Part shown: in pieces, positions 5,608 through 64,000 of the stretch | How the letters are laid out: each line of letters begins with the position of its first letter | Position numbering within the stretch: position 1 is the stretch's first letter | The notes under the pieces: model-generated | Seen by the model: the letters and a program-made list of their open reading frames with translations, nothing else | Databases searched by the model: none | Told to the model about the DNA's origin: nothing | Origin: an uncultured Eubacteriales bacterium | GTDB taxonomy: Bacteria; Bacillota; Clostridia; Acetivibrionales; CAVYEU01 | Assembly: GCA_963767415.1 (NCBI GenBank) | Contig: CAVYEU010000095.1 | Location: 2,959-66,958 of the forward strand | Reading direction: 5' to 3' | DNA length: 64,000 nucleotides | Translations under genes and position numbers: made by a program

Positions 5608-6849
5608 ATGGAGGAAGTAATGTCAAAGAAGGTAGTTGTAATAGGCGCTGGACCTGCAGGTATTATGGCAGCATGTGTAGCATCGCAAAAAGGTAACAAA
5701 GTATATTTACTTGAAAAAAATAATAAAATCGGGGAAAAAATTTTAATTTCAGGTAAAGGCAGATGCAACATAACTAATGATACTGATGTTGAAGGTCTGA
5801 TAGAAAACACTCCTGGAAATGGTAATTTTCTTTATTCTGCTTTTCATACTTTTTCAAACACTGACCTAATAAATTTCTTTAATGCCCATGGCTTAGAAAC
5901 AAAGGTTGAAAGAGGAGGACGGGTTTTCCCGGTATCTGATGATGCAAAAGATGTTGTAGACGTATTATTACGATATTTAGAGGAAAGCAATGCTAAGGTT
6001 CTACTAAATTCGAATGCTGAAAAAATTTTGGTAGAAAATAATACTATATCTAGTGTAATACTCAAAAGTGGAAAAGAGATTGTTTGTGATAATGTGGTGC
6101 TAGCAACTGGAGGTGCATCTTATCCATTAACAGGCTCAACCGGTGATGGATATAAAATTGCCAAGTCACTGGGACATACAATTAATGAATTAAAACCATC
6201 CTTAATACCCCTTATCACAAAAGAAAAATGGATTTCAGAGCTTCAAGGGGTATCTCTTAAAAATATTGAGATTACTTTAGTTCATAAAAACTCAAAGGTA
6301 TTGTATACAGATTTTGGTGAAATGATATTTACTCATTTTGGGGTATCCGGTCCTGTTATTCTAAGTGCTAGTAGACATATTTTAGACTATGGATATACCG
6401 GGATAAAACTTTTTATTGATTTAAAACCAGCGCTTAATGTGCAAAAGCTTGACGAACGATTTCAAAGAGATTTTACTAAATATTCAAGAAAACAGTTTAA
6501 AAACTCATTAGATGATTTATTGCCAAAAAAAATGATTCCTATAATGATTAGATTATCAGGCATCTCCCCTGAAAAACCGGTAAACCAAATAACTAAAGAT
6601 GAAAGAAAAATAATCCTTAATCTATTTAAGCAATTTGAACTAAATATCATTGGTTCAAGGCCAATTGATGAAGCTATTGTTACTTCTGGAGGCATATCCG
6701 TCAGCGAAATAAGCCCATCTACAATGGAATCAAAAATAATAAAGAATCTATATTTCGCAGGAGAAATAATTGATGTAGATGCCTACACTGGTGGATACAA
6801 TCTAACCATTGCCTTCTCGACCGGCTATTTGGCAGGGAAAAGTATATAA
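5608..6849 (+). CDS. NAD(P)/FAD-dependent oxidoreductase, HI0933/BaiN (aminoacetone oxidase-like) family
   Basis: VVVIGAGPAGIMAA dinucleotide-binding fold; 413 aa; HI0933-like layout. Confidence 0.75.
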   Translation: MEEVMSKKVVVIGAGPAGIMAACVASQKGNKVYLLEKNNKIGEKILISGKGRCNITNDTDVEGLIENTPGNGNFLYSAFHTFSNTDLINFFNAHGLETKVERGGRVFPVSDDAKDVVDVLLRYLEESNAKVLLNSNAEKILVENNTISSVILKSGKEIVCDNVVLATGGASYPLTGSTGDGYKIAKSLGHTINELKPSLIPLITKEKWISELQGVSLKNIEITLVHKNSKVLYTDFGEMIFTHFGVSGPVILSASRHILDYGYTGIKLFIDLKPALNVQKLDERFQRDFTKYSRKQFKNSLDDLLPKKMIPIMIRLSGISPEKPVNQITKDERKIILNLFKQFELNIIGSRPIDEAIVTSGGISVSEISPSTMESKIIKNLYFAGEIIDVDAYTGGYNLTIAFSTGYLAGKSI

Positions 6850-46647: not shown

Positions 46648-47571
46648 ATGAACATTCTAGTTACAGGTGGTGCTGGATTTATTGGCCGTTGGGTTGTAAA
46701 AAGACTATTGGATGATAGCCATATGGTATGTGTTCTTGATGATCTTTCAAACGGTAGCTTAGATAATATAAAAGAGTTTAAGGATAATATTAAATTTATT
46801 CATGGCGATATGAAAGACAAAAGTCTGCTGCAAACAATATTTCAAACAAAATATGACATATGCTATCATTTGGCTGCAAGTATAAATGTTCAAGACAGCA
46901 TCGATGACCCCTTAAAAATATTTGAAAATGATACTATTGGAACGGTGAATATTCTGAACTCATGTAAAGAATCAAACACAAAGATTGTTTTTATGAGTAC
47001 ATGCATGGTTTATGATCGTGCTTCTTTTGAGTCTGGGATTACAGAAAAACATCCAACAAAGCCAGCCTCACCATATGCTGGAAGCAAGCTAGCAGCTGAA
47101 AATATGGTATTATCATACTGGTATGCGTACAAGCTGCCAATTGTTGTAGTTCGCCCATTCAATACATATGGTCCTTTTCAAAAATCAAGTGGTGAAGGTG
47201 GAGTTGTTTCAATATTTATAAAAAGACATTTAGAAAATAAAAAACTCCTAATATATGGTGACGGGTTACAAACTCGAGATTTATTATATGTTGAAGACTG
47301 CGCAAGGTTTGTAATTCTAGCTGGATATTTAGACTCTGTTAATGGAGAAATAGTAAACGCAGGTCTTGGCAAGGATATAGCTATTAATGATCTAGCGATG
47401 ATGATTTGCAACAACACTGCCCAAATAGAGCATATAAAACACATTCACCCTCAAAGTGAGATACCAAAGTTACTGTGTGATTATAAAAAAGCCCAAAAAC
47501 TATTAAACTGGACTCCACAGGTTTCATTAGAAAAAGGAATCGAGCTTACAAAATCGTGGATTAAAGAGTAG
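46648..47571 (+). CDS. NAD-dependent epimerase/dehydratase family protein (short-chain NDP-sugar epimerase)
   Basis: ILVTGGAGFIG Rossmann fold and YxxxK (YAGSKLAAE); GGAGGAG RBS. Confidence 0.75.
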   Translation: MNILVTGGAGFIGRWVVKRLLDDSHMVCVLDDLSNGSLDNIKEFKDNIKFIHGDMKDKSLLQTIFQTKYDICYHLAASINVQDSIDDPLKIFENDTIGTVNILNSCKESNTKIVFMSTCMVYDRASFESGITEKHPTKPASPYAGSKLAAENMVLSYWYAYKLPIVVVRPFNTYGPFQKSSGEGGVVSIFIKRHLENKKLLIYGDGLQTRDLLYVEDCARFVILAGYLDSVNGEIVNAGLGKDIAINDLAMMICNNTAQIEHIKHIHPQSEIPKLLCDYKKAQKLLNWTPQVSLEKGIELTKSWIKE

Positions 47572-47636
47572 AATTATATGCCATGTCTTGCATGATGGAT
47601 AAATGTATGGGCTTTACTTAGATCAGCCACCCGAAT

Positions 47637-48321
47637 CTATCCAAATGCTATAAGAGGAGTCTCTCCTAGAGAACTTATTAGGTTTATATTTGCTCCATAT
47701 AATAAAAGTAAATTGACTAATTCGGAACGGTTTTGCTCTATTGCATACATCAATGCATTTTTACCATCATTATCAAATGCATCTAAAAAAGCACCGCTTT
47801 TTATTAAAACTTTAGCAATATCATATTTTTCAAAATTTATTGAATAAATCAAAGCAGTTTTGCGTGTACGCCTGGAAGTTACATCTAAATCAGCATCTTT
47901 TTTTATAAGAGTATCAACTAAGATGAGTTGTCCACGACTGGCTGCTGCAAGTAACCCTGTGTTTTGGTTGAATTCGTCGATACTGAAATTCTTATCTTTA
48001 TCTAAAATCAATTTACCTATCTCAGGTAAATCATATAATATAGCATAAATTAAAGCAGTCTTACCATTTGTATCTTTATAGTCAAAAAACAGTGCTGTAT
48101 GAAATTATTAATCTTGCTATATCAGGGTTATTGGTTTCAAGAGCATTCATTAGTCCAGTTTTCCCATCTGAATCAGTCATATTTAGAACTTGCGAATATT
48201 GATTTATGAGTAATTCGACATCATTAGGGTTTTTACTTTCTATCATAGTAAATAACCTGACTAGTATGTCTCCTTGACTGCTTGAAGTAATGTTTGTTGA
48301 TTGCATAAAATTCCCCTCCAA
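47637..48321 (-). pseudogene. ankyrin-repeat protein gene split by a -1/+1 frameshift in an A6/T6 homopolymer
   Basis: ORFs 48082..48321 and 47637..48011 both carry ANK repeats (DGKTGLMNALETNNPDIARLII; DGKNALMYAIEQNRSELVNLLLLYGANIN). Deleting one T from the T6 run (plus-strand A6 at 48088-48093) joins them in frame (..TVFDYKDTNGKTALIYAILYDLPEIGKLILDKDKNF..). Confidence 0.6.
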
Positions 48322-48451
48322 AAAACTTTAGATAACATTTTAGTAAGAATATTGAGATTTTGAACATTACTTAAGTAAATATTTTCATTAAAGATATACA
48401 AATAAATAAGCGTTTAATTATAAAAGGTTCAAAATAAATTCACTCTAATAT

Positions 48452-48487
48452 AGATTAGCATATTTTTGTAAAATTTGCTAATCTATA
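48452..48487. promoter_or_regulatory. 13-bp perfect inverted repeat (operator candidate) in the divergent ankyrin/metH intergenic region
   Basis: ATATAGATTAGCA-N(~10)-TGCTAATCTATAT. Confidence 0.3.
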
Positions 48488-48703
48488 TTAAAAATAATTT
48501 TTCATGAAAAATTATAGGGATAGGTGGTATTGACTGATTGTCTAGCATTAAACGAGAATTGTTTAAACAAAGATAAGATTACGTGATTGAAAACACACTT
48601 ATTTGTGATTGAAAAGACAACCTGAATTAGTGATTTTGACCTACCTTTACCCTTCATTCTACTTGACTAGACTAAGCCTATCAAGTAGAATTTCCTCAAG
48701 GGG

Positions 48704-51124
48704 GTGAGGATTATTAACAAACGTGAGCTTTTAAATCATCTCGAAGATAATATTATTATATTAGATGGTGCTACTGGCACTGAGCTTCAAGAAAGGGGTA
48801 TGCCTAAAGATGTCTGCCCTGAACAGTGGGTTCTTCAAAATCCCGAAACAATCATTGATATTCAAAGAAAGTATATTCTAGCCGGATCGAATGCTGTTTA
48901 TACATGCACCTTTGGTGCTAATAGAATCAAGCTCAGTGAATTTGGTCTTCAGGAAAATGTCAGACAAATTAATAAAGACTTGGCTATGCTTTCGAGGAGA
49001 ACTGCTAAAGAGAAAGTTTTTGTAGTCGGTTCTGTAGCGCCGACTGGAAGATTCATCAAACCCTTTGGGGATATTGCTTTTGAAGAGGTTGTCAATATTT
49101 ATAAAGAACAGGTTCAAGGGCTCTTAGAGGGTGGTGTTGACTTTTTTGTCATAGAGACAATGATTGATTTGCAAGAGACCAGAGCAGCATTGTTAGCTGT
49201 TTTAGAAAGTTGTGATCTCCCTGTGTGTGTTAGTTTGACATTTGAAGTAAATGGTAGGACACTCACTGGAACTGATCCTAAGACAGCGGTCATTACACTC
49301 CAAAGTCTCGGGGCAGATGCAGTTGGGTGTAATTGTTCAACTGGACCAAGTGATATGTTAAAGATAATTGAACAAATGTCTAAGGTTGCTAAAGTTCCCC
49401 TTATCGCAAAGCCTAATGCAGGTATTCCTAAGCTTATAGATAATAAAACTGTTTTTGATATGCAGCCTCAAGATTTTGCGTCATATACAAAATCTTTCAT
49501 GGATCTTGGAGTTAGATTGATCGGAGGATGCTGTGGTACAACGCCTAGACATATAGAGGCTTTAAAAAATAATTTGACTAAACCTTCTTTATTCAAAATT
49601 CCACAAAAGGATTTTAGCATATTGACTTCATCGAGAAAATCAGTTCATATAGGTGCTGATACTCCTTTAGTCATTGTTGGTGAAAGAATCAATCCAACTG
49701 GCAAAAAGAAACTTCAGGAAGATCTTAAAGAAGGTAAAACCTTGGAGGTTCGAAGACTTGCAATAGAACAAATAAGTAGTGGTGCTAGCATTCTTGATGT
49801 CAATGTCGGTATGCCTGGAATTAATGAAAAAGAAACTATGGTAAGCACTGTTGAATTTTTAAGTTCCATCGTTGATTCTCCACTGTGTATTGATTCATCC
49901 TCCCCCGACGTTATTGAAAATGCATTACGTGTATATCCTGGCAGAGCTTTAATTAACTCTATTTCTTTTGAAAAATCCAAAATAGAAAGGCTTATACCCA
50001 TTGCAAAGAAATATGGCGCTATGTTTATTATACTTCCATTAGACGATAATGGTATTCCATCAACCTTTGAAGCAAGGATTGATATTATCCAGAAAATTTT
50101 TAGGTTTGCAAATAAATTTGGTATTTGTAAATCAGATATAGTAGTTGATGGGCTAGCAATGACTGCCTCATCTGATCAGAATGCTGCTAAATTGACGCTC
50201 GAGACTATTGACTGGTGTTCTAATGTTTTAAAGTGCAACACTATTGTTGGATTATCAAATATTTCGTTTGGATTGCCTAATAGAAGTTGGATAAACGCTG
50301 CATTCCTGGTTATGGCTATGGGAAGGGGTCTATCTATGGCCATTGCTAATCCGCTTGCTGAAATTTTAATAAACTTAAAATATGCATCTGATGCTTTGGT
50401 CAATCGAGATAGAAATTGTAAATATTACGTAGAGCATTTTACTAAAAATGAGCATACTACTGATGATAGAAATGCAAATAAGGATAAGGATCTAAGACCA
50501 GTTGAAAGACTCTATAATACTATCTTGCAAGGTGACAAAGATAATGTCATAGGTATTATTGATGCTGTATTAAAAGAAAATATTGAGCCTAAGGTAATTG
50601 TAGATGAATACCTAATACCTGCTATTAATCATGTCGGAGAGCTATATGAAACAAAAAAATATTTTCTTCCTCAGCTTATTAATAGTGCGGAAACTATGAA
50701 AAAAGCGTTTGAGTTTTTGGAGCCGATGCTTAAGACTGATGAAACTAATAAGACCTCAACCACTATAGTTCTTGCTACTGTAAAAGGAGATATTCACGAT
50801 ATTGGGAAAAATATTGTTGCTTTAATGCTTAAAAACTATGGATTTACCGTAATTGACCTTGGAAAAAATGTTCCTACTTTGACGATCATCAATAAAGCAA
50901 AAGAATTGAATGCAAAAATAATCGGGTTGTCAGCTCTTATGACAACTACAATGGTCGAGATGAAAGAAGTTATTCGTCTTGCAAAAGAATCTGATCAAGA
51001 TTTCAAAATAATCGTTGGGGGTGCAGTTGTTACTTCTCAGTACGCAGATGAAATCGGTGCAGATGGTTATTCCCGTGATGCATATGAGGCAGTTCATTTA
51101 GCTCGGAAATTATTATATAATTGA
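48704..51124 (+). CDS. metH: B12-dependent methionine synthase, short form (Hcy-methyltransferase + pterin-binding + B12 cap/B12-binding; no AdoMet reactivation domain)
   Basis: ILDGATGTEL... Hcy domain with GGCCGTTP; pterin-binding region; B12 cap; B12-binding DxHxxG (GDIHDIGKNIV) with LSALMTTT. 806 aa aligns along its length with Thermotoga-type short MetH. GTG start. Confidence 0.85.
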   Translation: MRIINKRELLNHLEDNIIILDGATGTELQERGMPKDVCPEQWVLQNPETIIDIQRKYILAGSNAVYTCTFGANRIKLSEFGLQENVRQINKDLAMLSRRTAKEKVFVVGSVAPTGRFIKPFGDIAFEEVVNIYKEQVQGLLEGGVDFFVIETMIDLQETRAALLAVLESCDLPVCVSLTFEVNGRTLTGTDPKTAVITLQSLGADAVGCNCSTGPSDMLKIIEQMSKVAKVPLIAKPNAGIPKLIDNKTVFDMQPQDFASYTKSFMDLGVRLIGGCCGTTPRHIEALKNNLTKPSLFKIPQKDFSILTSSRKSVHIGADTPLVIVGERINPTGKKKLQEDLKEGKTLEVRRLAIEQISSGASILDVNVGMPGINEKETMVSTVEFLSSIVDSPLCIDSSSPDVIENALRVYPGRALINSISFEKSKIERLIPIAKKYGAMFIILPLDDNGIPSTFEARIDIIQKIFRFANKFGICKSDIVVDGLAMTASSDQNAAKLTLETIDWCSNVLKCNTIVGLSNISFGLPNRSWINAAFLVMAMGRGLSMAIANPLAEILINLKYASDALVNRDRNCKYYVEHFTKNEHTTDDRNANKDKDLRPVERLYNTILQGDKDNVIGIIDAVLKENIEPKVIVDEYLIPAINHVGELYETKKYFLPQLINSAETMKKAFEFLEPMLKTDETNKTSTTIVLATVKGDIHDIGKNIVALMLKNYGFTVIDLGKNVPTLTIINKAKELNAKIIGLSALMTTTMVEMKEVIRLAKESDQDFKIIVGGAVVTSQYADEIGADGYSRDAYEAVHLARKLLYN

Positions 51125-51152
51125 TAATTAAAGGAACATTACAATAAACAAT

Positions 51153-51797
51153 ATGGACAAAGACTATAAAACAATAATTAATTTATTAAAAAATGAATAT
51201 CCAAATTCAAAATGTGGTTTGGAGTACAAAACACCTTTTGAATTATTAGTAGCTGCAATACTTTCAGCTCAAACAACAGATATTAAGGTTAATCAAATAA
51301 CTAAAGGCTTATTTTTCAAATACCCTACTTACCGTGATTTTTTGTCACTTAAGCAAGAAGACCTTGAAGCTGAAATTAAGATGCTTGGGTTGTACAAGAA
51401 TAAGGCAAAAAATATACTAGCCATGTGTAAGCAGTTGGATGAAAAATACAGGGGTATTATACCAAATACACTTGAAGAACTTACTATTTTTTCCGGGGTA
51501 GGAAGAAAAACAGCTAATGTTATTTTGAGTAATATCTTTGGAATACCAGCAATTGCAGTTGATACTCATGTATTTAGAGTAGCAAACAGAATTGGACTTA
51601 TTAAAGCGAAAAACGCTTTTGAAGCTGAAATACAGCTTCAAAAAGCGTTGGATACTAAATATTGGATTCTGGCGCATAACCTATTAGTATGGCATGGAAG
51701 AAAATGTTGTACTGCAAGAAAGCCAAGATGTGAGGATTGTGTAATCTCAGGTTATTGTATTACTTATGAAAAGTGCTATAATATGATTAATGTGTGA
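51153..51797 (+). CDS. nth: endonuclease III (DNA glycosylase/AP lyase)
   Basis: HhH-GPD (LPGVGRKTANVIL-like FSGVGRKTANVIL) and a C-terminal 4Fe-4S cluster, Cx6Cx2Cx5C (CTARKPRCEDCVISGYC). Confidence 0.9.
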   Translation: MDKDYKTIINLLKNEYPNSKCGLEYKTPFELLVAAILSAQTTDIKVNQITKGLFFKYPTYRDFLSLKQEDLEAEIKMLGLYKNKAKNILAMCKQLDEKYRGIIPNTLEELTIFSGVGRKTANVILSNIFGIPAIAVDTHVFRVANRIGLIKAKNAFEAEIQLQKALDTKYWILAHNLLVWHGRKCCTARKPRCEDCVISGYCITYEKCYNMINV

Positions 51798-51907
51798 AAC
51801 AATTGTTAAGTTAAAGAAAGGCGATGTATTAATATGATCATAAAAAAATACAACATAAAACCAAAAAATTAACCTTAAAGTTAATTGGATACTCAAACAA
51901 TAGATAA

Positions 51908-51947
51908 ATATAGCGATAAAGCCTCAAATGAGGCTTTATCGCTATAT
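51908..51947. terminator. bidirectional terminator between nth and the convergent hsp20
   Basis: ATATAGCGATAAAGCCTCA-AAT-GAGGCTTTATCGCTATAT. Confidence 0.7.
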
Positions 51948-51968
51948 TTTATAAAAATTAGATATTAT

Positions 51969-52433
51969 TTATGAAATATCAATTTTCTTTTCTATTTGAC
52001 ATGTTTCTTCTTTTTTTGGCAGTACCAGTATTAGAATACCATTATCAAACTTAGCAGTAATTTTGTCGCTATGAACATTGTCAATAGAAAACGATCTTGT
52101 CATTGAACTTGTTCTTCTTTCTTTTCTTAAATATCGCTCATTTTTTTCTTCTTTTTCTTCATCTTTTTCTACGCTTATTGTTAATTTGTTATCATTAACT
52201 TTTAGATTTATTTCTTCTTTTTTAATCCCCGGCAATTCAGCTTCAAGTATATATTCTTTTTCATTTTCTTTTATATCTACTTTTAATTGACCACTGTTAC
52301 TAAAGTGTGACGGTAAAATCGAGTCATTAAAAAAGTTTTCAAAACCATCATTTACATTAAGTAGATCGAACAAGCTATTATATTTCCTTTGAATTTCATT
52401 ATTTTCTCTATTAAATGGTATTAAGTTTAACAT
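51969..52433 (-). CDS. Hsp20/alpha-crystallin family small heat-shock protein
   Basis: ACD motifs (ILEAELPGIKKEEINLKV...AKFDNGILILVLPK). Likely start at MLNLIPF (ATG at 52433) after a GGAGGTGA RBS. Confidence 0.85.
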   Translation of the reverse strand: MLNLIPFNRENNEIQRKYNSLFDLLNVNDGFENFFNDSILPSHFSNSGQLKVDIKENEKEYILEAELPGIKKEEINLKVNDNKLTISVEKDEEKEEKNERYLRKERRTSSMTRSFSIDNVHSDKITAKFDNGILILVLPKKEETCQIEKKIDIS

Positions 52434-52861
52434 ACATGTCACCTCCATAATTGATTTAGATTTATTTTTTGGATTACATACCTCAAATTAAATGGTTCCA
52501 AATTCACTAGTCTTAACCTTCTATTGCTATACCATAATTGACACCTCCGTTTCTATCTGTGGCTTTTATTTCCTTCTTATACTCTTATTTATATAATTTT
52601 TCTATGTTATTATCAAATCTTGTCTTTGCCTTTCTTTGACCTTTATAAGCTATTATTTTTATATATTTGAATTTATCTTTATAAATCTCAAATTTTCTTC
52701 GTTTTTTGGAGTATTTCTAATTAGTTGTTACTCAATCCCCAAAATCCAAATATTGCAAATAAATAGAGCTTCTGATTATTATAAAATTTTATTTAGAGAT
52801 TATTACTGATACGGAGCATAGCTCCGTACTGGATCTACTGAGGCGAAATAATCATCTGTTA

Positions 52862-53633
52862 TTATATTCTGTCGATTACACTTTTAGAAATACCAATGAT
52901 CCTTGATAATTGACGTATTGATATGCCTTCAATTAATTTTAGTTTACAGATATATTCATTTCGCATTTGAATGTTCATATTATGTAATTCATTTACGTTC
53001 TCAAGACCAATTTGTACTATGATTTCTAGAACATCATTGTCATCTAGCCTTTTGGGGTCATAATAATCTAAACATTGATCTTTATTACTTTCATTATTAA
53101 ATTTTATAAATAATTCAATAGCCTTTTTATGGTCAGATGAATACAATAGCAAAGCAACTTTGGTATTTACCATATCAAAGTTTTCTATATATTCATTGTA
53201 ACTACTCCATTTATAATCTTGAATATTGCGTGTAATATTTGCTTTGACTGGGTTTTGATGAATATATCTTAAAACCCGTCAAGAAATATGAATCATCTAA
53301 TACTACTTCACTTTTAAATCTTTCTTGAAATAAGTGCCCACATCTTCCATACTTTTTATTGTACCAAAAAACATAGCTACTACTAATTCTTTTTATTATA
53401 TTAGATATGGACTCGTTGCTTTCTTTTAAAAGTAAATGGATATGGTTGCTCATCAAACAATAACTATAAATTTCATATTTACAAATTTCCTTATACCTTA
53501 CAACAGTTTCAAGAAACCTCTGTTTGTCTTCATCGTCTTCAAAAATTATTTGTTTGTTTATTCCACGCATAATAACATGAAATATACCACTATCACTTTC
53601 TATACGACTATGTCTAGACATACAAGCCTCCAT
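52862..53633 (-). pseudogene. Y1 HUH transposase (IS200/IS605 TnpA / REP-associated tyrosine transposase-like) with C-terminal HTH, disrupted by a +1 frameshift in a G-run
   Basis: N-terminal part carries the HuH motif (CLMSNHIHLLL) and YGRCGHLFQERFKSEVV. Removing one G from GGG (plus-strand CCC at about 53280) restores ...DDSYFLTVLRYIHQNPVKANITRNIQDYKWSSYNEY..., which continues in frame into ORF 52862..53173 with an HTH (ISIRQLSRIIGISKSVIDRI). A subterminal hairpin TACGGAGCATAGCTCCGTA sits at 52812-52832. Confidence 0.65.
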
Positions 53634-53717
53634 TTTGTTTATTTTAATTCAATTATTGATAAAAATAATGTTTCTGTAATAAAAGTACCTTTTTTAAATT
53701 TTATCATAACTTCAAAA

Positions 53718-53748
53718 GAGGGACAAGGTACCTGTCCCCTTGTCCCTC
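53718..53748. repeat. REP-like GC-rich palindromic element, copy 1
   Basis: GAGGGACAAGGTACCTGTCCCCTTGTCCCTC; nested palindromes GGGACAAGG/CCTTGTCCC and GGACA..TGTCC. Confidence 0.8.
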
Positions 53749-53768
53749 CAATATAATTAGGAGCATTA

Positions 53769-54743
53769 TCAATCCTTTTCTCTTAATTCCAGTATTTCGG
53801 CTTCAGATATATTTAATATATTTATAATTTCATCTATAGATCTACCTAAGTTTATTAACTTTTTTGCGATTTCATATACCGTTTGTTTTTTCCCTTCTTC
53901 TATACCAAACCTCTTTCCTTCTTCTATACCAAACTTCTTTCCTTCTTCTATACCAAGCTTCTTTCCTTCTTCTATACCAGACTTCTTTCCTTCTTCTATA
54001 CCATCTTTTTTCCCAACTACATAAGTAGACTCATGCATACTTGCCTGATAATGCATATTTTCTATATAACGTTTATAATCAAGTAAATCTTCTTTAGGTA
54101 GCTTCATTTTATTTAATTTCTCTCGTGCCTCGCTTAGCCCTTTTGCACTAAATTCTTCCTTTATCTCTTCATTTTTCAAAAAATAGATCCATTCATCTAA
54201 CGAATCTTTTGCTATATCGTTAAACCTGTTTACCTTTATAAGATAATATTCTGGATATATTTGATAAACAAAATCTTTTGAGTATAACTCTTGCTGTCTT
54301 GCATTTAATTCCAATTCATCATCAAAGTGCAATCCTTTGAATTTTGTTGTACCATGATATACATAATCAAGTCCATGCCCTAGGTCAAAAAATACTACAC
54401 TTATTGAGTATATTTTTTTTACACTTGAATAGGGATCGCTTTCCCTCATGTACTCTGTTATTGACTTGGAAACTCCAAATAGAATCCTTGATAAAAAATC
54501 AAATTCGTTATCTACTTGAATTTCTACAATTATTAACTCCTTGTCTTCGTTTTCTACCATTATATCAACTCTATTGTATTTATCGTCCTTATCTTCTTTA
54601 TTACTTTCACTCTCTATTATATTCACAATTTTTAGATTTTGACGTAATACAACACTTAAGAACCCTTCCAGAACCCCAAAATTCGCTTTACTTCTTAATA
54701 GTTTTTTTATTGCCCAGTCAAACCGTACCAGCTCTCTCTCCAT
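53769..54743 (-). CDS. Rpn/YhgA-like PD-(D/E)XK nuclease-family putative transposase (TIGR01784-like), paralog 1
   Basis: N-terminal PD-(D/E)XK core (RVDIMVEN..ELIIVEIQ) and a C-terminal G(I)EEGKK decapeptide repeat encoded by 30-bp tandem DNA repeats (53880-54010). Confidence 0.65.
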   Translation of the reverse strand: MERELVRFDWAIKKLLRSKANFGVLEGFLSVVLRQNLKIVNIIESESNKEDKDDKYNRVDIMVENEDKELIIVEIQVDNEFDFLSRILFGVSKSITEYMRESDPYSSVKKIYSISVVFFDLGHGLDYVYHGTTKFKGLHFDDELELNARQQELYSKDFVYQIYPEYYLIKVNRFNDIAKDSLDEWIYFLKNEEIKEEFSAKGLSEAREKLNKMKLPKEDLLDYKRYIENMHYQASMHESTYVVGKKDGIEEGKKSGIEEGKKLGIEEGKKFGIEEGKRFGIEEGKKQTVYEIAKKLINLGRSIDEIINILNISEAEILELREKD

Positions 54744-55003
54744 GACCTCTCTCCTACATTTATATTTTATTTAGTATTATATTTAAGTAAGTATAATTGC
54801 TATCTGATAGTATTATACTATAATTATTTTAAGATACGTTATAGTTATTTTTTTTTAATTGTTTTTTCTCAAACTCGTCCAGCCTAATTCAGTCTCTAAT
54901 ATGGTTTATGTACCTACAATTGCTTATCAATAGTAAAAACGCACCCCTTTGTTCTCCTTATTTTTTTTCAATTGCTGGGACAAAAGTGGGAGCAGGGGAA
55001 AAA

Positions 55004-55034
55004 GAGGGACAAGGTACCTGTCCCCTTGTCCCTC
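55004..55034. repeat. REP-like palindromic element, copy 2
   Basis: Identical GAGGGACAAGGTACCTGTCCCCTTGTCCCTC. Confidence 0.8.
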
Positions 55035-55256
55035 TCCACTGATGAAATAGGTAAAAGCCTAAGCAATTTTATACTATTGAAAAACATAGTGATGACATTG
55101 TTTTTAAAGTTGCTGATAAAAGAAATAAAACACTCAAAAGTCTCGATAAATTCAAACTACTAAAACACTTTGAAGCATCTAGAAAGTGGAATAAAAAGAA
55201 TAGTTAAATCAACCGCAACTGATAAAAATAGCCCATACTGTGGCATTCATTTCAAG

Positions 55257-55281
55257 AGAGGGACAGGTACCTTGTCCCTTC
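55257..55281. repeat. REP-like palindromic element, degenerate copy 3
   Basis: GAGAGGGACAGGTACCTTGTCCCTT; one base missing relative to the full element. Confidence 0.6.
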
Positions 55282-55293
55282 CTTCTGTCATTT

Positions 55294-56316
55294 TCAATCA
55301 TGTAATACTTTTTTTATATCATCAATACTTTCAATTTGGAAAATACTTTCAATTAGCGTATCTACCAACACCAAATTATTTTTAAGTTTGATTTGATCTA
55401 ATAATTCTTTTGTTAAATCAATCTTTTTAATACTAAGTAGTTTAACTAAGCAATCTATTTTAGCTTCTATCATACCTTTTTCAATACCTTTTTCAATACC
55501 TTCCTCTTTACCCTTTGCAAGACCATCTTTATAAATTGCTTTTGCTATATTTGATTTATAACATGCTAATCCCATACTATTCACATCTCCTTCCTCTAAA
55601 TTAATTAATTCATTATCAAGCTGGATTTCCATCTCATCTGATAAACTAATTATTGCATTTATAAATATAAAAATCTTCTCTATTTTTTCTCTTGTATAAT
55701 TATTTCTCAATAATTGCCTAATCAATCGTAATTTAAAAATGTATTTCTCTTCATCGGTATTATTATTAATTGAATATAATACTGCTAATACTATAAGTGC
55801 AAATGAATTATTATTTGCCTCTAATGTTTCTATTCTTTGATCAATTATTTTATATATATTAAATTTATATGATACTGATGTATTCAAAAAATTATACTTA
55901 AACTCATTAGGCTTATATTTTATATTTGAATCTGTAAATATAGTTAATGCTACTATTTCTTTTGCATATTTATCATATATTCTATAAAAATACTTAAACA
56001 TCCTTTCTAAAAACAATGTGTCTTGATACCCTTGAATTTCAATATGGATCAAAACCCACTTTTCTTCACCTGTTTTTAAATACACTTTGACCAATTTATC
56101 AGGTATTTTCTTTCCTATCTTTGCTTTTATTGATATTTTTGAAAGTTCTTTATCTAAAAATTCATATGGTTTTGTAAAATCAATTATTTCATAAAGTTCT
56201 GGTAAAAAGAATAAAACAAAATCTTCAAATAAATCCTCTATTATTCCCTTCCAAAGCTCATCATGGCTTACTTTAACAATATTATCAACATCTTTATTCT
56301 CATATATCAATTCCAT
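55294..56316 (-). CDS. Rpn/YhgA-like PD-(D/E)XK nuclease-family putative transposase, divergent paralog
   Basis: PELYEIIDFTKPYEFLDKEL...DKLVKVYLKTGEEKWVLIHIEIQ core and a C-terminal EGIEKGIEKG repeat typical of the family. Confidence 0.65.
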   Translation of the reverse strand: MELIYENKDVDNIVKVSHDELWKGIIEDLFEDFVLFFLPELYEIIDFTKPYEFLDKELSKISIKAKIGKKIPDKLVKVYLKTGEEKWVLIHIEIQGYQDTLFLERMFKYFYRIYDKYAKEIVALTIFTDSNIKYKPNEFKYNFLNTSVSYKFNIYKIIDQRIETLEANNNSFALIVLAVLYSINNNTDEEKYIFKLRLIRQLLRNNYTREKIEKIFIFINAIISLSDEMEIQLDNELINLEEGDVNSMGLACYKSNIAKAIYKDGLAKGKEEGIEKGIEKGMIEAKIDCLVKLLSIKKIDLTKELLDQIKLKNNLVLVDTLIESIFQIESIDDIKKVLHD

Positions 56317-56437
56317 TGTTATTTTATCAACCCAATCTTTTGTCTATTTATTTTGATTATATTTCTTTTGATTTAAAAAAACAATACTAATTGGTAAATA
56401 TGGGCATATTCTACCTTTATAGTGTTATTGATAGAAT

Positions 56438-56467
56438 TTAAGGGAAAGGGACAAGGAACCTGTCCCC
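56438..56467. repeat. REP-like palindromic element, copy 4 (one mismatch)
   Basis: GGGACAAGGAACCTGTCCCCTTGTCCCTCC. Confidence 0.75.
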
Positions 56468-56599
56468 TTGTCCCTCCAATATAATTAGGAGCATTATCAA
56501 TCCTTTTCTCTTAATTCCAGTATTTCGGCTTCAGATATATTTAATATATTTATAATTTCATCTATAGATCTACCTAAGTTTATTAACTTTTTTGCGATT

Positions 56600-57454
56600 T
56601 CATATACCGTTTGTTTTTTCTTCCCCTCCTTCTTCTATACCAAACTTCTTTCCTTCTTCTATACCAAGCTTCTTTCCTTCTTCTATACCAGACTTCTTTC
56701 CTTCTTCTATACCATCTTTTTTCCCAACTACATAAGTAGACTCATGCATACTTGCCTGATAATGCATATTTTCTATATAACGTTTATAATCAAGTAAATC
56801 TTCTTTAGGTAGCTTCATTTTATTTAATTTCTCTCGTGCCTCGCTTAGCCCTTTTGCACTAAATTCTTCCTTTATCTCTTCATTTTTCAAAAAATAGATC
56901 CATTCATCTAACGAATCTTTTGCTATATCGTTAAACCTGTTTACCTTTATAAGATAATATTCTGGATATATTTGATAAACAAAATCTTTTGAGTATAACT
57001 CTTGCTGTCTTGCATTTAATTCCAATTCATCATCAAAGTGCAATCCTTTGAATTTTGTTGTACCATGATATACATAATCAAGTCCATGCCCTAGGTCAAA
57101 AAATACTACACTTATTGAGTATATTTTTTTTACACTTGAATAGGGATCGCTTTCCCTCATGTACTCTGTTATTGACTTGGAAACTCCAAATAGAATCCTT
57201 GATAAAAAATCAAATTCGTTATCTACTTGAATTTCTACAATTATTAACTCCTTGTCTTCGTTTTCTACCATTATATCAACTCTATTGTATTTATCGTCCT
57301 TATCTTCTTTATTACTTTCACTCTCTATTATATTCACAATTTTTAGATTTTGACGTAATACAACACTTAAGAATCCTTCCAGGACCCCAAAATTCGCTTT
57401 ACTTCTTAATAGTTTTTTTATTGCCCAGTCAAACCGTACCAGCTCTCTCTCCAT
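56600..57454 (-). CDS. Rpn/YhgA-like PD-(D/E)XK nuclease-family putative transposase, paralog 2 (near-identical to 53769..54743 but with fewer 30-bp repeat units and an altered C-terminal end)
   Basis: Protein identical to paralog 1 over about 270 aa; the GIEEGKK repeat is shorter and the C-terminus reads GIEEGGEEKTNGI. Confidence 0.6.
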   Translation of the reverse strand: MERELVRFDWAIKKLLRSKANFGVLEGFLSVVLRQNLKIVNIIESESNKEDKDDKYNRVDIMVENEDKELIIVEIQVDNEFDFLSRILFGVSKSITEYMRESDPYSSVKKIYSISVVFFDLGHGLDYVYHGTTKFKGLHFDDELELNARQQELYSKDFVYQIYPEYYLIKVNRFNDIAKDSLDEWIYFLKNEEIKEEFSAKGLSEAREKLNKMKLPKEDLLDYKRYIENMHYQASMHESTYVVGKKDGIEEGKKSGIEEGKKLGIEEGKKFGIEEGGEEKTNGI

Positions 57455-57713
57455 GACCTCTCTCCTACATTTATATTTTATTTAGTATTATATTTAAGTA
57501 AGTATAATTGCTATTTGATAGTATTATACTATAATTATTTTAAGATACGTTATAGTTATTTTTTTTTAATTGTTTTTTCTCAAACTCGTCCAGCCTAATT
57601 CAGTCTCTAATATGGTTTATGTACCTACAATTGCTTATCAATAGTAAAAACGCACCCCTTTGTTCTCCTTATTTTTTTTCAATTGCTGGGACAAAAGTGG
57701 GAGCAGGGGAAAA

Positions 57714-57744
57714 GAGGGACAAGGTACCTGTCCCCTTGTCCCTC
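57714..57744. repeat. REP-like palindromic element, copy 5
   Basis: GAGGGACAAGGTACCTGTCCCCTTGTCCCTC. Confidence 0.8.
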
Positions 57745-57799
57745 TCTAAATAGTAACAAGAAAAAGAAACAAAGAAAAAACAGCTGACAAAGCCTCTGT

Positions 57800-60700
57800 T
57801 TTTTTTTAATAATTACTTTTATACACGAGTACTGCTATGGGAAAGTTATACTTACTGGTGTAGCTAAGGTATTGCATCCATTAAAGTCAAGAGTCTTAGT
57901 TGCTGAACCAAAGAGCAACTGTTCCCCACCTGTAAGTTTACTAGTTTTTATATCAACCTTGAATGAAAAATGTAATTGAGCTCATCTCACCTTACCTAAC
58001 TAATATCACTATTACCTTGAAGTTACTGGTATTAGAAACAGCTACACCAACTGCTTGAACATTATTTGATGGATCTTTAATCGTCGCAGCTTTTCCAGTA
58101 ATTGTTGAAAGCATTAGTAATCTTATTTGTTAGCGTATTTGATAACAAGTATTATTGTTATATCTCTTGATGGACTTGAAACTAAATCAATTGATGGACT
58201 ACTTGATAGTGTAGCAGCATCGCTAGTTGCAAATGGTCCCACAGAGAATGTAAATGCATTGCTAACTTGAGCTACTGTTGGTGCAGCATCTGTCCAGCCA
58301 CTTGGAGGAGCATAAACAGCTTCACTATATCTAATTGTTAGAGCATCCCCTACTCCTGCAGTACCTGCATCTGTACCAACATCAAGAATTCCACCATTCT
58401 TTGATAAACCAGCTGCAGATATTATTACTGGAGCTACTGTGTCAGCTATTGTAAGAGCTGCAGTACTTGCATCCATATTTATCGGATATGCTAAGTTACC
58501 AGATGCATCTATAACATAATTCGATGTATCTGCATTTACAAAGTCAGCTTTTACTTGACCAGTTCCTGCTACGGTACCATCAAGTGTTATTGTCAGTATA
58601 TCTGAGTTAGTACCAGTTACAGCATATGATACAGGTACCAATGTAACATCATTTATACCATTATTTACAGTTAATACGCTGAATGTCTTTGATGCACTTA
58701 ATGTGTTGCTTAGTGTTCCTATTATTGCTATTGGTTTATTAAACTTAAATGATACTGTATCCAATTTACCATCTGCATTAGTATCCGCTGCTTTTGTATT
58801 TCCATCAGCTACCATTACTATTGGTGCAGACTTATCAGCAACCACTGTGCTATTGGTTGATGAATTAAATGTTGCACTTGCCAATGCATTTCCTGCTAGA
58901 TCTGTGAACTCACCTGTTGAAGCTCCTGGAGCAGTGAACTTCCAAGCAAGTTTAGTAGTGCTACTCGGCATAGTACTTGGTAAAATAATTGTTACAAAGT
59001 TGCCATTCAAAACATTTGGATCTATTGTACCACTCATGTCATTAGAGTCATTAGAACCTCCAACGCCAACTGGAAGTGCAAGTGTTGCTCCTGTTAGTAC
59101 TCCTGTATAATCAGCAGCATTTGCATCAGTATAATTTGCACAATACGTAAGCTGCGTTGCTATTGCCGCTGCAGTTATTGATGAACTCATCATTGGTTCA
59201 GAGAACTGAATTGTTAATTTGTTAATCTTTCCAGCATCAACTGTATCATACTGATACATATTAACTATTGTTGGTGGTACTGTTTCTGTTGTATAATTCA
59301 ACGTCGTAATATTAATTGCTGCTTCCTGTCCTGCTGAATTTAGATTATTATTTACACAATTTCCCGATGCATCTCTAATCTTAACTGTTCCATTTGTAGA
59401 TACATCAATTTGTCCATTTAGCCTTGTGTCATTAGCAAGCGCTGCATAGATTATTTCAGCGTTACTGCCTTGGCTATATGTTGCACTTCCCAATGTTCCA
59501 CTTTGATTTGTGAAACAGAATTGATTTTGTGATAATGTTCCATATATCTGCACTGGTTTTGAGAATGTCAATACCAATGTGTCCCCTGCACAGTTGTCTT
59601 GCCCTGGTACGTAGTTTATTGCCTGTGCTGACACCAATAACGGCCTTGTTGTATCATTTGACGTAATTGTAACTGGTGTATCGTTTGCTCCTGCTCCTGG
59701 TACTCCCCATGTGCTTAAAACGTGTGTAGGAGCATTTGCATCCCTTGCTTGCACACCATTTAAGAATAAACCAGTTCCGTCTTTATCAAATTTAGGTGTT
59801 CCTGATGCTATCATTACCTGTAACTGATTTCCATTTCCATTTATATCAGGATTTAATATTGTTGGATTTGAAAATGTTACTGATCCCCAATTTACAATAC
59901 CACCTGCTACAGTTGGTGATAATACTATGTCACTTGGTGATAAGTTTGGATCCGCTATTACATCTACACCATACGTGAATACTAAGTGATCTCCTTGACC
60001 AATTTTTCCAGTACCTGAATCATTTGAGTATGTCACTGATACAATCGCTGGTACTGTAGTAGCTGCTGGTTCAATTGTATTAGCAGTAGAACTAGGATTC
60101 TGATAAGCTGCTGCCGGCTGTGCTGCATTTGGTGCTGTTCCTGATGTTGGTGCAGTTGTTGTAGCTTTCATAAATATATTTTGTTCCAACTGATGCTACA
60201 TCTACATATTTATTAAGAACTGCCTGTAACCATGCTTCTTGTGTTGCATATGCTGATGTTCTTGTACCAAATACGATTTCAACATCTGCTGATGTTGGTC
60301 CGGTTGTTATTGTATATCCGGATCCAAAGAAGTTTGTTGCACCATTTGCATCAAATTAGTTCCATTTATTGCAAATGCTGTACCATCAATACTTGTAGTA
60401 TTAATTGTTATATTTTTGTTGAATGTCAGAATAATATAGTCTCCTGCTGACAATGTTCCATTATTATCTGCATCAACTAACTGATTATTAGTATTAGCAA
60501 CAAGCTCTAAACCTGTACTAACTGCTCCTAAGATTGTTTTACTGTTTGTTGAACCATTTGCCACTATAACATTTCCTGTCGTATCTTGAACATTTGTTAC
60601 TGTTACATTCCAATATACTGCTGACTGCAATGAAGTGGTAAGCAATACTCTTAAGCAATCATTTGATAATGCAGCACTTGAAATTATAAGTTGCTGCGTT

Positions 60701-61400
60701 GGATTTGATTTATTGGCTACTGTATAGTTTGCAATATTTGTTGCTGTTGCTGCTGATACTTTTTTGCTAAATATTACTTGTACTAATGTTGCTGAAAGTG
60801 AAGTTGCTGATGCTACTGTTGGTGGCAGTAAATCAGTATAGGTAATCGGAACACCTGTTGTGTTTGCAAGGCAGTTATTTTGTGATTCATCTACTACTGC
60901 ATTTGCACTGTACTCTACTAATAGATTAACTGTTGAAGCCTGATACCCTGATGTTCCTTCTATTGCATGAAGCATGCGCACTATTTCCAAGTTTGCAGGT
61001 ACCCCAACATATTAGTATTAATCCAGTAAGTCAAATTTAATACCGATGAATCATATGGTGTAGCTGCTGATGTTTCTTCTGCTGTTTCTGATAAGTTAAA
61101 TAACTTATTTGCTCCGTTGAATACACTGAAATCACCTACAGTTACTTGATCATATACTACTTTTTTGTTAAATGTTAATTTTAGCTTATGAGTATAATCG
61201 TTATAAGAAGACGATATTAACTGAGGTGCATTCGTGCTTCTTACATATGTCATTGAAATTCCTGAGCCTGTTGTAGCGTTATTTTGCAATGCATTTGATG
61301 TAGTATCTGTAAATGCATCTGCTAAATAACTTATATAGGTATTGCTTGGTGTTGTTGTATTCCATGTGGATATATGCTGTGTTGATAAAGCTAGTACCAA
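57800..61400 (-). pseudogene. downstream portion of a large T/S/N/A-rich S-layer/cell-surface protein gene, broken into at least 3 ORFs (58123..60189, 60307..60990, 60981..61400) plus a degraded tail
   Basis: Same composition and strand as the SLH-bearing ORF upstream. The ORFs abut or overlap (gaps 61400/61442 and 60189/60307; overlap 60981-60990), none has its own signal peptide or RBS, and translation continues across the breaks in alternative frames. Confidence 0.5.
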
Positions 61401-61441
61401 TTCTGGTCCATTTGCTGATGTTAATATTGTATCAGTTGAGT

Positions 61442-63748
61442 CTAATGCAAATGATGCACCTGCTCTTGATATCTGTTTACTGCTATGTTTAGCTGTGTTG
61501 AATTGATTTCAATAGCTTTATTGAAATCCAGTGTCAATCTTCCAGTTTCTTCATCATAGCTTGCTGCTGTGATAGATGGAGGATTGTTAACTGTTAATGC
61601 CATGGTAGTCTGTGGAATTAGGTTTAATGCTGTGTCTTTAATTGAACCTGCTCCCAATGTGATTGTCCATGGAGATGCTAAAGCTGCTATAGCTTGTGAA
61701 CTTGCTGTACTTAGATCCATTGTAATCTGCGTTCCATCTACTCCAAGACCTTGGAAATCACTTGCTGTTAAAGTTACTGTTCCATTTCCATTTGCCCCTG
61801 TTACTGTGAACTGTGTTGGCTTTACATTTAAAGGATCTCTTTTTATATTTTCATTAAAGTTCAATGTCAATTCACATAACTGAGTATTATAATAAGCTTG
61901 TGTAAGAACTGGAGGTGTAGTATCTGGTGTTGCTAATCCAGTAAATGTTGCTGATGAATTTTGTAAAACTGTATTTAAAGCTAGGTCTTCTACTTCATTC
62001 GATGATGCTTGGGTAATATAAACTATATATTGCTTTGGTATTAAACCGTTTACTGTAAATGGTGAAAATGTAGTATTTGATACATCTGTTCCAGCTAAAG
62101 TAATCATTACAGTTGTCTGATCAGCAGAAAGAGTAATTACTGATTGTGTTGTAAGATCTCTGTAATATCCGGTTGAAACGTCCATTATTCTGTAGTTTGT
62201 AATATCAAGCGTTCCTGTAGTTGACATTGCTTTGCTAAATGTCAATGCGATTTGTGTTGCATTCATTGCCTGTGTACTTACTAATGTTGGTCTTGTTAAA
62301 TCTGGTGAAAATGTTCCTGTCAATGCAGTACCGGTTGCTGGAGTATAAGTCCATGTTACTGATGATACTGTATTGTCTATTGTATCAGTTGTTAGATCTA
62401 CTTCTGTTGTGCTTACTAATACAGGAGCTGAAACTGCATATGTTGTTCCTGGTGTTACAGTATTCTTTAATGCAAATCTGCTTAGTAAGTCTGCTATTGT
62501 TGCTGTTGTAAATCCAGTTCCTGTTAACTTGATTTCTTGTCCAGAAATCGCTGACACTGCTGAAATATTAAATGTTGCTGATACTGTAAAAGCTGCTGCT
62601 GATACTGGTGCAGTTGTCTGGTATGCAACCGAGTATACAACTGATTGATCAACTGTTCCTGCTGTTACTGGTGCAACAGTTAATACTGCAGTATTAGTTG
62701 TTGCATCAAAACCATATACTGTCGCTGCAACTGATGTAGCTGCTGTTGTTCCAATTGCTTGTGATACTGTGAAATCAGTTGTTGCTGGAGCTGTTGCTGG
62801 TGCTTGATTTAATAATACTGCAACCTGTCCATTTGTTGCAGTTGCTGATACAGCATATACTGATGAAGCAACTGGTGCTGGTGTAGCTGAAGTCTGAGTA
62901 GTTTGGCTTCCTGATGCCCCTGGTACTGGTGTAGCTTGTCCAGGTGCTCCTGAAGATTGTCCTGCTGGTTCTGATGATCCTGTCAAACCTGCTACATCAT
63001 TTGCTATACCTGTTTTATCTACTGCATCTTGAGTTACTTTTCCATCTGATGTTAATTTAGCAAATATTGTCTGCGGTGTTTCTATGTCACCATTAGCTTG
63101 TTTATAAGGTGCTGCTAATAATGCATAATAAGCGAATCCTACGAAATCATCTTTTGTTAAGTCTTTATTTTCCAATACTGCCATATTACTTGCATATGCT
63201 GCAAAATTTGGATTGGCTGCTGCATTACTGATCTCTACTATTTTCTCTACAGCTTGATCATAACTAAAATCTCCTGCTGTTGAATCATACCCTAACTGTT
63301 TCAAAACTAGAGTACATAAATCTTTTCCTTTCAATGGGCCTTGAGGATTAAAAGTTCCATCAGGATTTCCTGCAATCATCGCAGCATAATCTGTACTTGT
63401 TGCATATGCGATTTGGTTTACTGCCCATGAATCTATTTGGCCTGAATCTTTAAATTGCGACACTATTTGTTGTGCGTCTGTAGGGTCTATTGCTTTAGCA
63501 TCGTCTTCTAAGCCAAATAATCTTAGAACTAGTATTGCTCCTGCTTCTCTTGTTAGAGAATCCTGTAATGCTGGAACAAATGTGGTAGCTGATGTACCGT
63601 AGTAAAGTCCAAGATCGTGTAACTTCCCTGCCTCTTGCGAGAAGCCAAACTGTTGTGAACTTGCGGGTGCTGCCCACACAGGTACAATAGCTGTCAAAAG
63701 CATTGCCATAACTACTAGTACCGCTAAATTCTTTTTGAGACTTCGCAT
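61442..63748 (-). CDS. S-layer / cell-surface protein N-terminal portion with signal peptide and SLH domains
   Basis: Signal peptide (MRSLKKNLAVLVVMAMLLTAIVPVWA), GGAGGA RBS, SLH-like repeats (..FKDSGQIDSWAVNQIAYA..GNPDGTFNPQGPLKGKDL..), then a long T/S/A/V-rich Ig-like repeat region. Ends at a frameshift-type stop. Confidence 0.65.
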   Translation of the reverse strand: MRSLKKNLAVLVVMAMLLTAIVPVWAAPASSQQFGFSQEAGKLHDLGLYYGTSATTFVPALQDSLTREAGAILVLRLFGLEDDAKAIDPTDAQQIVSQFKDSGQIDSWAVNQIAYATSTDYAAMIAGNPDGTFNPQGPLKGKDLCTLVLKQLGYDSTAGDFSYDQAVEKIVEISNAAANPNFAAYASNMAVLENKDLTKDDFVGFAYYALLAAPYKQANGDIETPQTIFAKLTSDGKVTQDAVDKTGIANDVAGLTGSSEPAGQSSGAPGQATPVPGASGSQTTQTSATPAPVASSVYAVSATATNGQVAVLLNQAPATAPATTDFTVSQAIGTTAATSVAATVYGFDATTNTAVLTVAPVTAGTVDQSVVYSVAYQTTAPVSAAAFTVSATFNISAVSAISGQEIKLTGTGFTTATIADLLSRFALKNTVTPGTTYAVSAPVLVSTTEVDLTTDTIDNTVSSVTWTYTPATGTALTGTFSPDLTRPTLVSTQAMNATQIALTFSKAMSTTGTLDITNYRIMDVSTGYYRDLTTQSVITLSADQTTVMITLAGTDVSNTTFSPFTVNGLIPKQYIVYITQASSNEVEDLALNTVLQNSSATFTGLATPDTTPPVLTQAYYNTQLCELTLNFNENIKRDPLNVKPTQFTVTGANGNGTVTLTASDFQGLGVDGTQITMDLSTASSQAIAALASPWTITLGAGSIKDTALNLIPQTTMALTVNNPPSITAASYDEETGRLTLDFNKAIEINSTQLNIAVNRYQEQVHHLH

Positions 63749-64000
63749 ACTCTCAAATCCTCCTTGTGTTTTGTATTTTGGAAGTAGTGAATAATAATAA
63801 AGCCAGGCTAAACCTACTCCCGATAGTTCAATAACCTGACTTTCAATAAACCTTAGGATAGTACCTTACCATTCGTATCCTTTGGATTCTAGTTTATTAT
63901 AACAAAGTGATTTTTTGACGTCAATGAATTGATCTCAGATGTAAAGAAATTGTAATAGAATTGAAATAATCACGGGGCAAGTCTTTGACTCAAATCGGAT

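Follow-up and report, generated by a model that had tools for sequence, protein, structure and literature searches.

The locus described here lies in a 64,000-nt stretch of DNA of an uncultured Eubacteriales bacterium (the window, always meant at its full length), which derives from one 69.6-kb NCBI/ENA contig whose proteins are singletons. In this stretch a gene for a Y1 (HUH) tyrosine transposase, assigned to the RAYT-like/TIRYT type (52862..53633, − strand), is adjoined by five copies of a palindromic module, called P1 to P5 in the following, and by three open reading frames (ORFs) of the Rpn type, in the order P1-RpnA-P2-(220 nt)-p3'-RpnB-like-P4-RpnA'-P5. The initial annotation had described this segment as a REP/RAYT-like mobile island in a low-GC setting. 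The low GC content was correct (32.5% for the window); in the GC profile the island had 22–31% against 32–39% in the neighbouring DNA, a difference which is not decisive.

Read through, the Y1 gene encodes about 252 aa, and its likely start is the ATG at 53621. In the window, an extra base in the CCC run at 53275–53277 splits the gene into two ORFs (53211–53633 and 52862–53173), and dropping one base of the run joins them into a 252-aa protein. The gene had been regarded as inactivated by this single-base insertion; the extra base is indeed there and does split the ORF, but it is missing from a Logan contig of the run ERR11523654, which is identical to window positions 47421–53445 save for this one base (CC versus CCC, in the 5855–5856 region of contig L121), the sole difference over 6 kb, and in which the Y1 ORF is open. 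Since this contig was assembled independently, the insertion would reflect a difference between strains or else an error in the homopolymer; the frameshift may thus have arisen in the assembly, and the inactivation is doubtful. The Logan contig stops inside the Y1 gene, at window position 53445.

The Y1 protein had been classified as IS200/IS605-type, an assignment which we could not uphold. The best-scoring family by far for the frameshift-corrected protein was the NCBIfam model REP_Tyr_transpos (NF047646; 71.1 bits, positions 2–146 of 146), whereas the NCBIfam IS200 model NF033573 gave 18.2 bits and its cut-off of 55 was not reached; Pfam reported only Y1_Tnp, described as 'Transposase IS200 like' (E = 1.2e-14). 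The HUH motif (HIH in 'SNHIHLL') and the Tyr motif ('RYIHQNP') were invariant in 34 homologs. A sequence search of the PDB returned a single match, TnpA_REP (4er8; E = 0.01), and the same structure was the top Foldseek match in the PDB (4er8_A; E = 6.6e-8, TMt 0.77) for the AlphaFold model of a 65%-identical homolog (pLDDT 87.5), ahead of the TnpA proteins of IS608 and ISDra2. We found 6037 homologous proteins at E ≤ 1e-10, nearly all of about 252 aa, for which the JGI name is "REP element-mobilizing transposase RayT". The C-terminal 100 residues are predicted to be helical in the homolog model, and this extension is probably a helix-turn-helix (HTH) domain. Judged by its profile matches and predicted fold, the Y1 protein is RAYT-like, closest to the TnpA_REP of E. 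coli, and not an ordinary IS200 transposase.

As for the palindromes, the 31-mer GAGGGACAAGGTACCTGTCCCCTTGTCCCTC occurs exactly three times on the + strand of the window, at 53718..53748 (P1), 55004..55034 (P2) and 57714..57744 (P5), where by chance none is expected. A fourth copy on the same strand, P4 (56446..56476), has 2 mismatches, including a T to A change in the loop, and the remaining one, p3 (55260..55278, − strand), consists of the 19-nt core GGGACAAGGTACCTGTCCC only, inverted, 100% complementary to the cores of P1, P2 and P5 and without the TGTCCC extension. Hence, of the five 31-bp copies first reported three stand as they were, whereas the fourth starts at 56446 and not at 56438, and the fifth is reduced to an inverted core. 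The 31-mer folds with about −12 kcal/mol in general, and P1 with −11.6 kcal/mol (z = −5.3). In the window, the dinucleotide before each copy is GA or AA, and the GT[AG]G tetranucleotide, which canonical REP (repetitive extragenic palindromic) sequences carry on the 5' side at the foot of the hairpin (PMC6006769), is absent. P1 is located 84–96 nt upstream of the Y1 start codon and 20 nt past the stop codon of RpnA; on the strand of the Y1 gene it reads GAGGGACAAGGGGACAGGTACCTTGTCCCTC, which includes GGGGACAG. P2 and P5 are solo modules, the former about 260 nt upstream of RpnA and the latter abutting the end of an S-layer-like gene region. Immediately upstream of both (54977–55003 and 57688–57713) stands GGGACAAAAGTGGGAGCAGGGG, in which one may see what is left of a decayed inverted partner module and hence of a former doublet. 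That p3 might be the 3' end of the Y1 element, moved from its original place, was also considered but rejected, since its flanks do not resemble the 3' end of the gene.

The same module is dispersed in many other genomes. In a scan of a species-representative genome collection of 596 Gb, exact matches to the 19-nt core were listed in at least 120 tiles, whereas by our arithmetic chance would account for about 4. They lie in Pelotomaculum, Pontibacillus, Lysinibacillus, Virgibacillus, Mesobacillus, Desulforamulus, Syntrophomonas, Ruminiclostridium, Pelosinus and other Bacillota; among the listed matches there were also a few metagenome-assembled genomes (MAGs) of Dehalococcoidia and one MAG labelled Actinomycetota. 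The core had no match in viral contigs, which speaks against a phage vehicle, and a full-text literature search with the motif string returned only unrelated papers. Aligned across genomes, the module measures about 28 nt, being composed of a T, the 19-mer and C-n-TGTCCC (GGGACAAGGTACCTGTCCC-cn-TGTCCC), with random flanks beyond; it forms a 6-bp stem (GGGACA/TGTCCC) with a 7-nt loop, followed by a second TGTCCC. In 129 variant copies the changes cluster at loop positions 7, 8 and 10, and hardly any affect the GGGAC/GTCCC stem; the T10A loop variant, the one seen in P4, is the commonest elsewhere (15 occurrences). Because the stems are invariant, covariation was uninformative, the change of A6 to G being the only one that retains a pair (G.T). 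The logo of the module revealed a T preference at −1 only, with no GTAG or GTGG. Allowing up to 3 mismatches, we counted 289 modules in 868 kb of module-bearing tiles and 0 in the same tiles after shuffling. Their arrangement follows a clear orientation rule, since 42 neighbouring pairs were '−+', only 2 were '+−' and 29 were in tandem; moreover, modules fell inside long open frames in 25% of cases, versus 77% of random positions. In the best-sampled assemblies the listed matches give at least 10–19 modules per genome, as lower bounds.

A homolog of Y1 (44–60% identity) is present in 10 of the at least 120 module-bearing tiles. Around the intact genes the placement of the module is regular: a reverse-complement copy lies 40–135 nt upstream of the start codon, and a forward copy starts at the stop codon, the G of TAG being its first base. 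From this placement, the '−+' doublets found elsewhere look like empty elements. The same flanks were found at loci picked via the protein, namely two in Sporomusa silvacetica and one in Anaerosalibacter. The genome of Sporomusa silvacetica (CP155573) contains two 854-bp units, 98% identical and 1.7 Mb apart (L122 and L123, both at 2935–3788), whose homology reaches precisely from the outer GGGACA to the outer GTCCC. In a protein-led sample of 80 metagenomic loci, the module was present at 8 of the 11 closest relatives, and in none of 80 gene-interior segments used as control. P1 is placed and oriented like the upstream module of the intact relatives and, on this comparison, is the 5' terminal inverted repeat of the Y1 gene itself; likewise, the comparisons indicate that the palindromes form a genuine repeat family, which is linked to this family of Y1 transposases.

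More distant Y1 relatives are flanked by related inverted repeats which are not palindromic, for instance GGGACGGTTCT.../...AGAACCGTCCC. At relatives with 45–52% identity (L138, L146, L148, L149, L160, L181 and others) two types of end repeat recur, GGGACGGTTCTTTTGTGTT and GGGACGGGGTTGTTGACAA. Since all of these begin with GGGAC, the palindromic module looks like a derived form that belongs to one subclade. In the MAG labelled Actinomycetota (L095, 1584–2830), a complete Y1 gene is followed, about 400 nt further downstream, by a second copy of its last 36 codons with the 3' module, which points to a one-ended or an aberrant copying event at the module. A further observation concerns the Dehalococcoidia MAG UBA2247 (L013, 1304–5852), in which a gene with a Macro domain and its DarT-like neighbour are surrounded by three direct modules, two of which abut paralogous gene ends encoding '...IDWLVYELYGLTLEEI', as if they had been inserted in or beside a methyltransferase-type C-terminus.

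It has already been reported that RAYT-like genes can be bracketed by terminal inverted repeats in place of GTAG REPs, and these have been named "TIRtrons"/"TIRYT" (Di Nocera 2013, PMC3733652). GGGGWSAS is present in many TIRtron repeats and self-complementarity in some, and as families they are moderately abundant, with members that stand singly, as dimers or in groups (PMC3733652). We read the locus, with a probability of roughly 75%, as one copy of a TIRtron-type element, composed of the RAYT-like Y1 gene and its 5' module P1, with four further solo modules between or downstream of the Rpn-type genes. The likeness is close: the relatives of the Y1 gene are bracketed by terminal inverted repeats, including those of the 854-bp Sporomusa unit, one of the two repeats being kept in the window; P1 contains the GGGGWSAS motif, as GGGGACAG; the 3' repeat of the relatives overlaps the end of the gene; and the repeats, partly self-complementary, make up a family of moderate abundance with singles, dimers and groups. 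On the other hand, the repeat here is a full hairpin plus a second TGTCCC, with a 19-nt core that is identical across many Bacillota genera, and in the window the 3' repeat is missing.

According to Quentin 2018 (PMC6006769), TIRYT corresponds to subclass 2.1, whose members are patchily distributed over the taxa and end in a Bac_DnaA_C domain or an HTH domain like HTH_23 or HTH_28, and no REP-like sequence is found near its genes; RAYT Group 1 is also present in Clostridia, with about 12 copies of the flanking 16-mer per replicon (Bertels 2017, PMC5581495). The long Y1 protein with a C-terminal extension, putatively of HTH type, the patchy taxonomy, the IS-like duplication and the low repeat counts are shared with subclass 2.1 and Group 1; unlike in subclass 2.1, the hairpin module described here flanks the genes and is dispersed. 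Judged by the published description, Y1 probably belongs to the TIRYT class and to subclass 2.1. The REPtron of E. coli (TnpA_REP, 4er8; REP/BIME/REPIN) offers the closest solved structure, with inverted hairpins flanking the gene, extragenic solo copies and inverted doublets, all seen in the relatives, the window having the 5' flank only; it differs in that the module here is without GT[AG]G, its 6-bp stem is shorter, its copies, counted as lower bounds, are in the tens, whereas canonical REPs exceed 100 per genome, and Y1 has an extra C-terminal domain and scores below the NCBIfam equivalog cut-off. The REP/RAYT-like arrangement proposed initially is therefore right as regards a RAYT-like protein and a dispersed repeat family flanking its homologs, but the repeat is not a GTAG REP and the arrangement has already been described as TIRtron/TIRYT, and RAYT Group 1 had been reported in Clostridia before.

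By analogy with TnpA_REP and IS608, the Y1 enzyme would bind the module as a hairpin in single-stranded DNA and would cut and rejoin beside it, so that whole elements, empty doublets and single modules might be copied into new intergenic sites.

Several points weigh against the reading as a TIRtron-type element. For this class we infer binding, cleavage and mobility by analogy. All five modules lie within one 4-kb cluster, with no further copies in the rest of the window, and activity in this genome is thus unproven; moreover, the 3' module and the canonical '−+' doublet are both absent from the window. The Y1 protein is under the equivalog cut-off of NF047646 (71.1 versus 80), and its C-terminal HTH is only putative, as Pfam HTH_3 gave E = 0.18 and Foldseek no significant match, the best geometry being that of the DnaA DNA-binding domain 3pvp (TM 0.39–0.42, with a non-significant E = 5). 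Finally, both Sporomusa elements are located just downstream of paralogous polymorphic-toxin cassettes, one with a Fil_haemagg_2 protein and a small ORF and the other with a 5904-aa protein and a YezG-like gene, and because of these neighbours a segmental origin of the two copies is possible.

At the 3' end of the gene, the Y1 stop codon in the window is TAA, followed by unrelated sequence. A hairpin at 52812..52832, reported initially and present as described, has a perfect 8-bp stem and a 3-nt loop (TACGGAGC-ATA-GCTCCGTA; −8.0 kcal/mol, z = −4.9) and lies about 30 nt past this stop codon, with no T-tract on either strand; it is unrelated to the module and occupies the spot of the 3' module in the relatives. 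An Rfam scan of 52000–58500 gave nothing relevant, with one weak match (E = 0.42).

All three Rpn-type ORFs are on the − strand. RpnA (53769..54743) is a full-length Rpn-family PD-(D/E)XK nuclease gene of 324 aa, with 75.2 bits to PF12784 (cut-off 27.4) and 83.6 bits to TIGR01784 (cut-off 52.1); an array at 53887–54014 contains five in-frame 24-bp repeats encoding GIEEGKKx. RpnA' (56600..57454) is a copy of RpnA cut to 284 aa, which still passes both family cut-offs (TIGR01784 58.7 bits, PF12784 75.8 bits); in its array (56622–56725) a 17-bp deletion shifts the frame, and HTH_Rpn_C, the C-terminal HTH part, is lost. The repeat-rich C-terminus is typical of the Rpn/YhgA family. The middle Rpn/YhgA-like ORF (55294..56316, 340 aa) is divergent and fails both curated cut-offs (TIGR01784 30.3 versus 52.1; PF04754 20.2 versus 21), and what it has in common with RpnA is limited to the Gly/Glu-rich G-I/L-E-x-G-K repeat region. 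Of the three Rpn-family genes first announced, the two in the repeat units are thus borne out as PDDEXK_2/Rpn genes, one of them truncated, but the middle one is a paralog only below the thresholds. PADLOC assigned neither RpnA nor the middle ORF nor the Y1 homolog to a defence system, and exact look-ups of the Rpn proteins found no sister loci or strains on record beyond the source contig.

RpnA and RpnA' belong to two near-identical repeat units of 1.3 kb, which were reported before and which we found at slightly corrected coordinates, 53719..55036 and 56447..57746, the second being defined by local alignment to the first. In this alignment 1296 of 1300 bases are identical (99.7%); unit 2 has a net 17 bp deleted in the 24-bp coding repeats and has lost one A, and 1.4 kb of unique sequence separates the two units. 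Unit 1 runs from inside P1, its left edge, to 2 nt past P2, its right edge, and unit 2 has P4 as its left edge and P5 as its right one, so that the duplicated block starts inside one module and ends at the end of the next. P4 retains its own 5' base and loop variant and is identical to P1 3' of the loop, and P5 equals P2; since P4 keeps its own loop variant, we placed the joint 3' of the loop. To judge from these edges, the duplication of RpnA is a module-to-module rearrangement, in which an "RpnA + module" segment bounded by two direct modules would have been copied into a pre-existing third module, by way of an excised circle or through two unequal exchanges. As for the cause of this step, we give about even odds to ordinary or short-homology recombination between the 31-bp repeats, somewhat lower odds to catalysis by Y1 and the remainder to other causes.

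A more ambitious joint reading would make the modules an undescribed REP/REPIN-like family in Gram-positives that relies on a TIRYT-type transposase, with a 19-nt core identical across Bacillota classes and more conserved than the enzyme (45–65% identity), and would take the RpnA duplication as a cassette-like movement of a passenger between modules by this enzyme; taken together, these claims are tentative and we think them unlikely.

A smaller chance has to be granted to the explanation that the 1.3-kb duplication and the Y1 frameshift are artefacts of metagenome assembly. The single 69.6-kb contig with its singleton proteins, the disagreement of the independent assembly at the very base of the frameshift, the many frame breaks in the adjoining S-layer gene, which are not on record in Logan, and the lack of all three Rpn ORFs in the Logan assembly are consistent with it. 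However, the two assemblies differ at one base only over 6 kb, and the 4 substitutions, the 17-bp and 1-bp indels and the unique spacer between the units argue against a duplication generated by assembly.

The modules lie within 15–20 nt after all three Rpn-type ORFs, p3 being 15 nt beyond the stop codon of the middle one, and this could mean that the palindromes are intrinsic terminators of a duplicated Rpn cassette, with Y1 as an unrelated neighbour. In fact, the hairpin is stable, and P2 passes the terminator scan on the strand of the Rpn genes (55025..55005 followed by CTTTTTCCCC), the sole terminator-like match in the region. Against this explanation, which we hold to be very improbable, a proper T-tract was found at 1 of the 5 modules, the module flanks Y1 homologs in unrelated genomes and occurs at more than 100 loci with heterogeneous neighbours, and the nearest RpnA homologs are without it. 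It is nevertheless plausible, from their position, that the modules also serve the Rpn genes as 3'-end hairpins, acting as terminators or mRNA stabilisers.

Equally improbable is the idea that Rpn drives a mobile element of its own, consisting of the P-Rpn-P unit and ending in the palindromes; in annotations the Rpn family bears the name 'recombination-promoting nuclease/putative transposase'. What was duplicated is exactly a module-Rpn-module unit, but the modules around RpnA are direct and not inverted, and no Rpn homolog was found among the at least 120 module-bearing tiles. The nearest relatives of RpnA (53–67% identity) are in Desulfobacterota, Chlorobi, Gammaproteobacteria and others, and at the nearest homolog loci (two distinct loci on three contigs, L205–L207) there was no module. 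A recurrent cargo between direct modules was sought in other genomes; the genes found there are heterogeneous (Macro/DarT-like, sigma/anti-sigma, biotin synthase, cytochromes). The Rpn homolog loci devoid of the module, together with this heterogeneity, indicate that the association of Rpn with the module is local, and no link between the two is known or was observed outside the window. Thus, the Rpn genes appear to be neighbours or passengers rather than components of the system, their link with it being coincidental; the proposal that Rpn nucleases are part of it and that of a mobile island acting as one unit were not supported.

The weakest alternative, that of an ordinary IS200/IS605 element with a standard TnpA and the palindromes as its subterminal ends, which the initial annotation had named as its own refutation, is already largely refuted and has next to no chance: the end repeat P1 does belong to the gene, the Sporomusa copies behave as discrete insertion sequences with no evident target-site duplication, and the HUH/Y1 fold, the hairpin-containing ends and the Pfam label are those of IS200/IS605 (IS608, ISDra2 TnpA), but the protein is not IS200 by profile score, sequence match or fold, is about 100 aa longer, carries a C-terminal extension, and has as ends inverted repeats of one module instead of two distinct same-strand left-end and right-end hairpins, most modules being solo or in doublets away from any Y1 gene.

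The TIRtron-type reading places the locus in a kind of system which is already known, as a Gram-positive example of a little-studied mobile element. Catalogues exist of RAYT-like genes that carry inverted repeats at their ends, and such repeat families are hardly documented in Gram-positive bacteria; in the main text and the accessible supplements of PMC3733652, no Firmicutes are named. The Bacillota clade, the hairpin-plus-TGTCCC module, the identity of its core across genera and the orientation rule of the doublets seem to be undocumented in the literature searched. The module, with its 6-bp stem, 7-nt loop and second TGTCCC, gives a sharply defined DNA partner to one large clade of more than 6000 homologs; assays of binding and cleavage could use it directly as substrate, and the movement of such elements in Bacillota could be traced with it as a marker. 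At the locus itself, the lesson is that modules can delimit the duplication of a gene.

Beyond P5, the S-layer-like region (57800–63750, − strand) consists of at least 5 ORFs (768, 139, 227, 688 and 40 aa) and smaller pieces, split by frame breaks, which could reflect either a pseudogene or indel errors of the assembly. The fragments of 139 and 768 aa are on record solely from the source contig, and not from the Logan assembly. The edge of the island had been equated with a decayed 3' end of the S-layer gene; instead, the gene is broken along its whole 6 kb, and the island lies beyond its end without clipping it.

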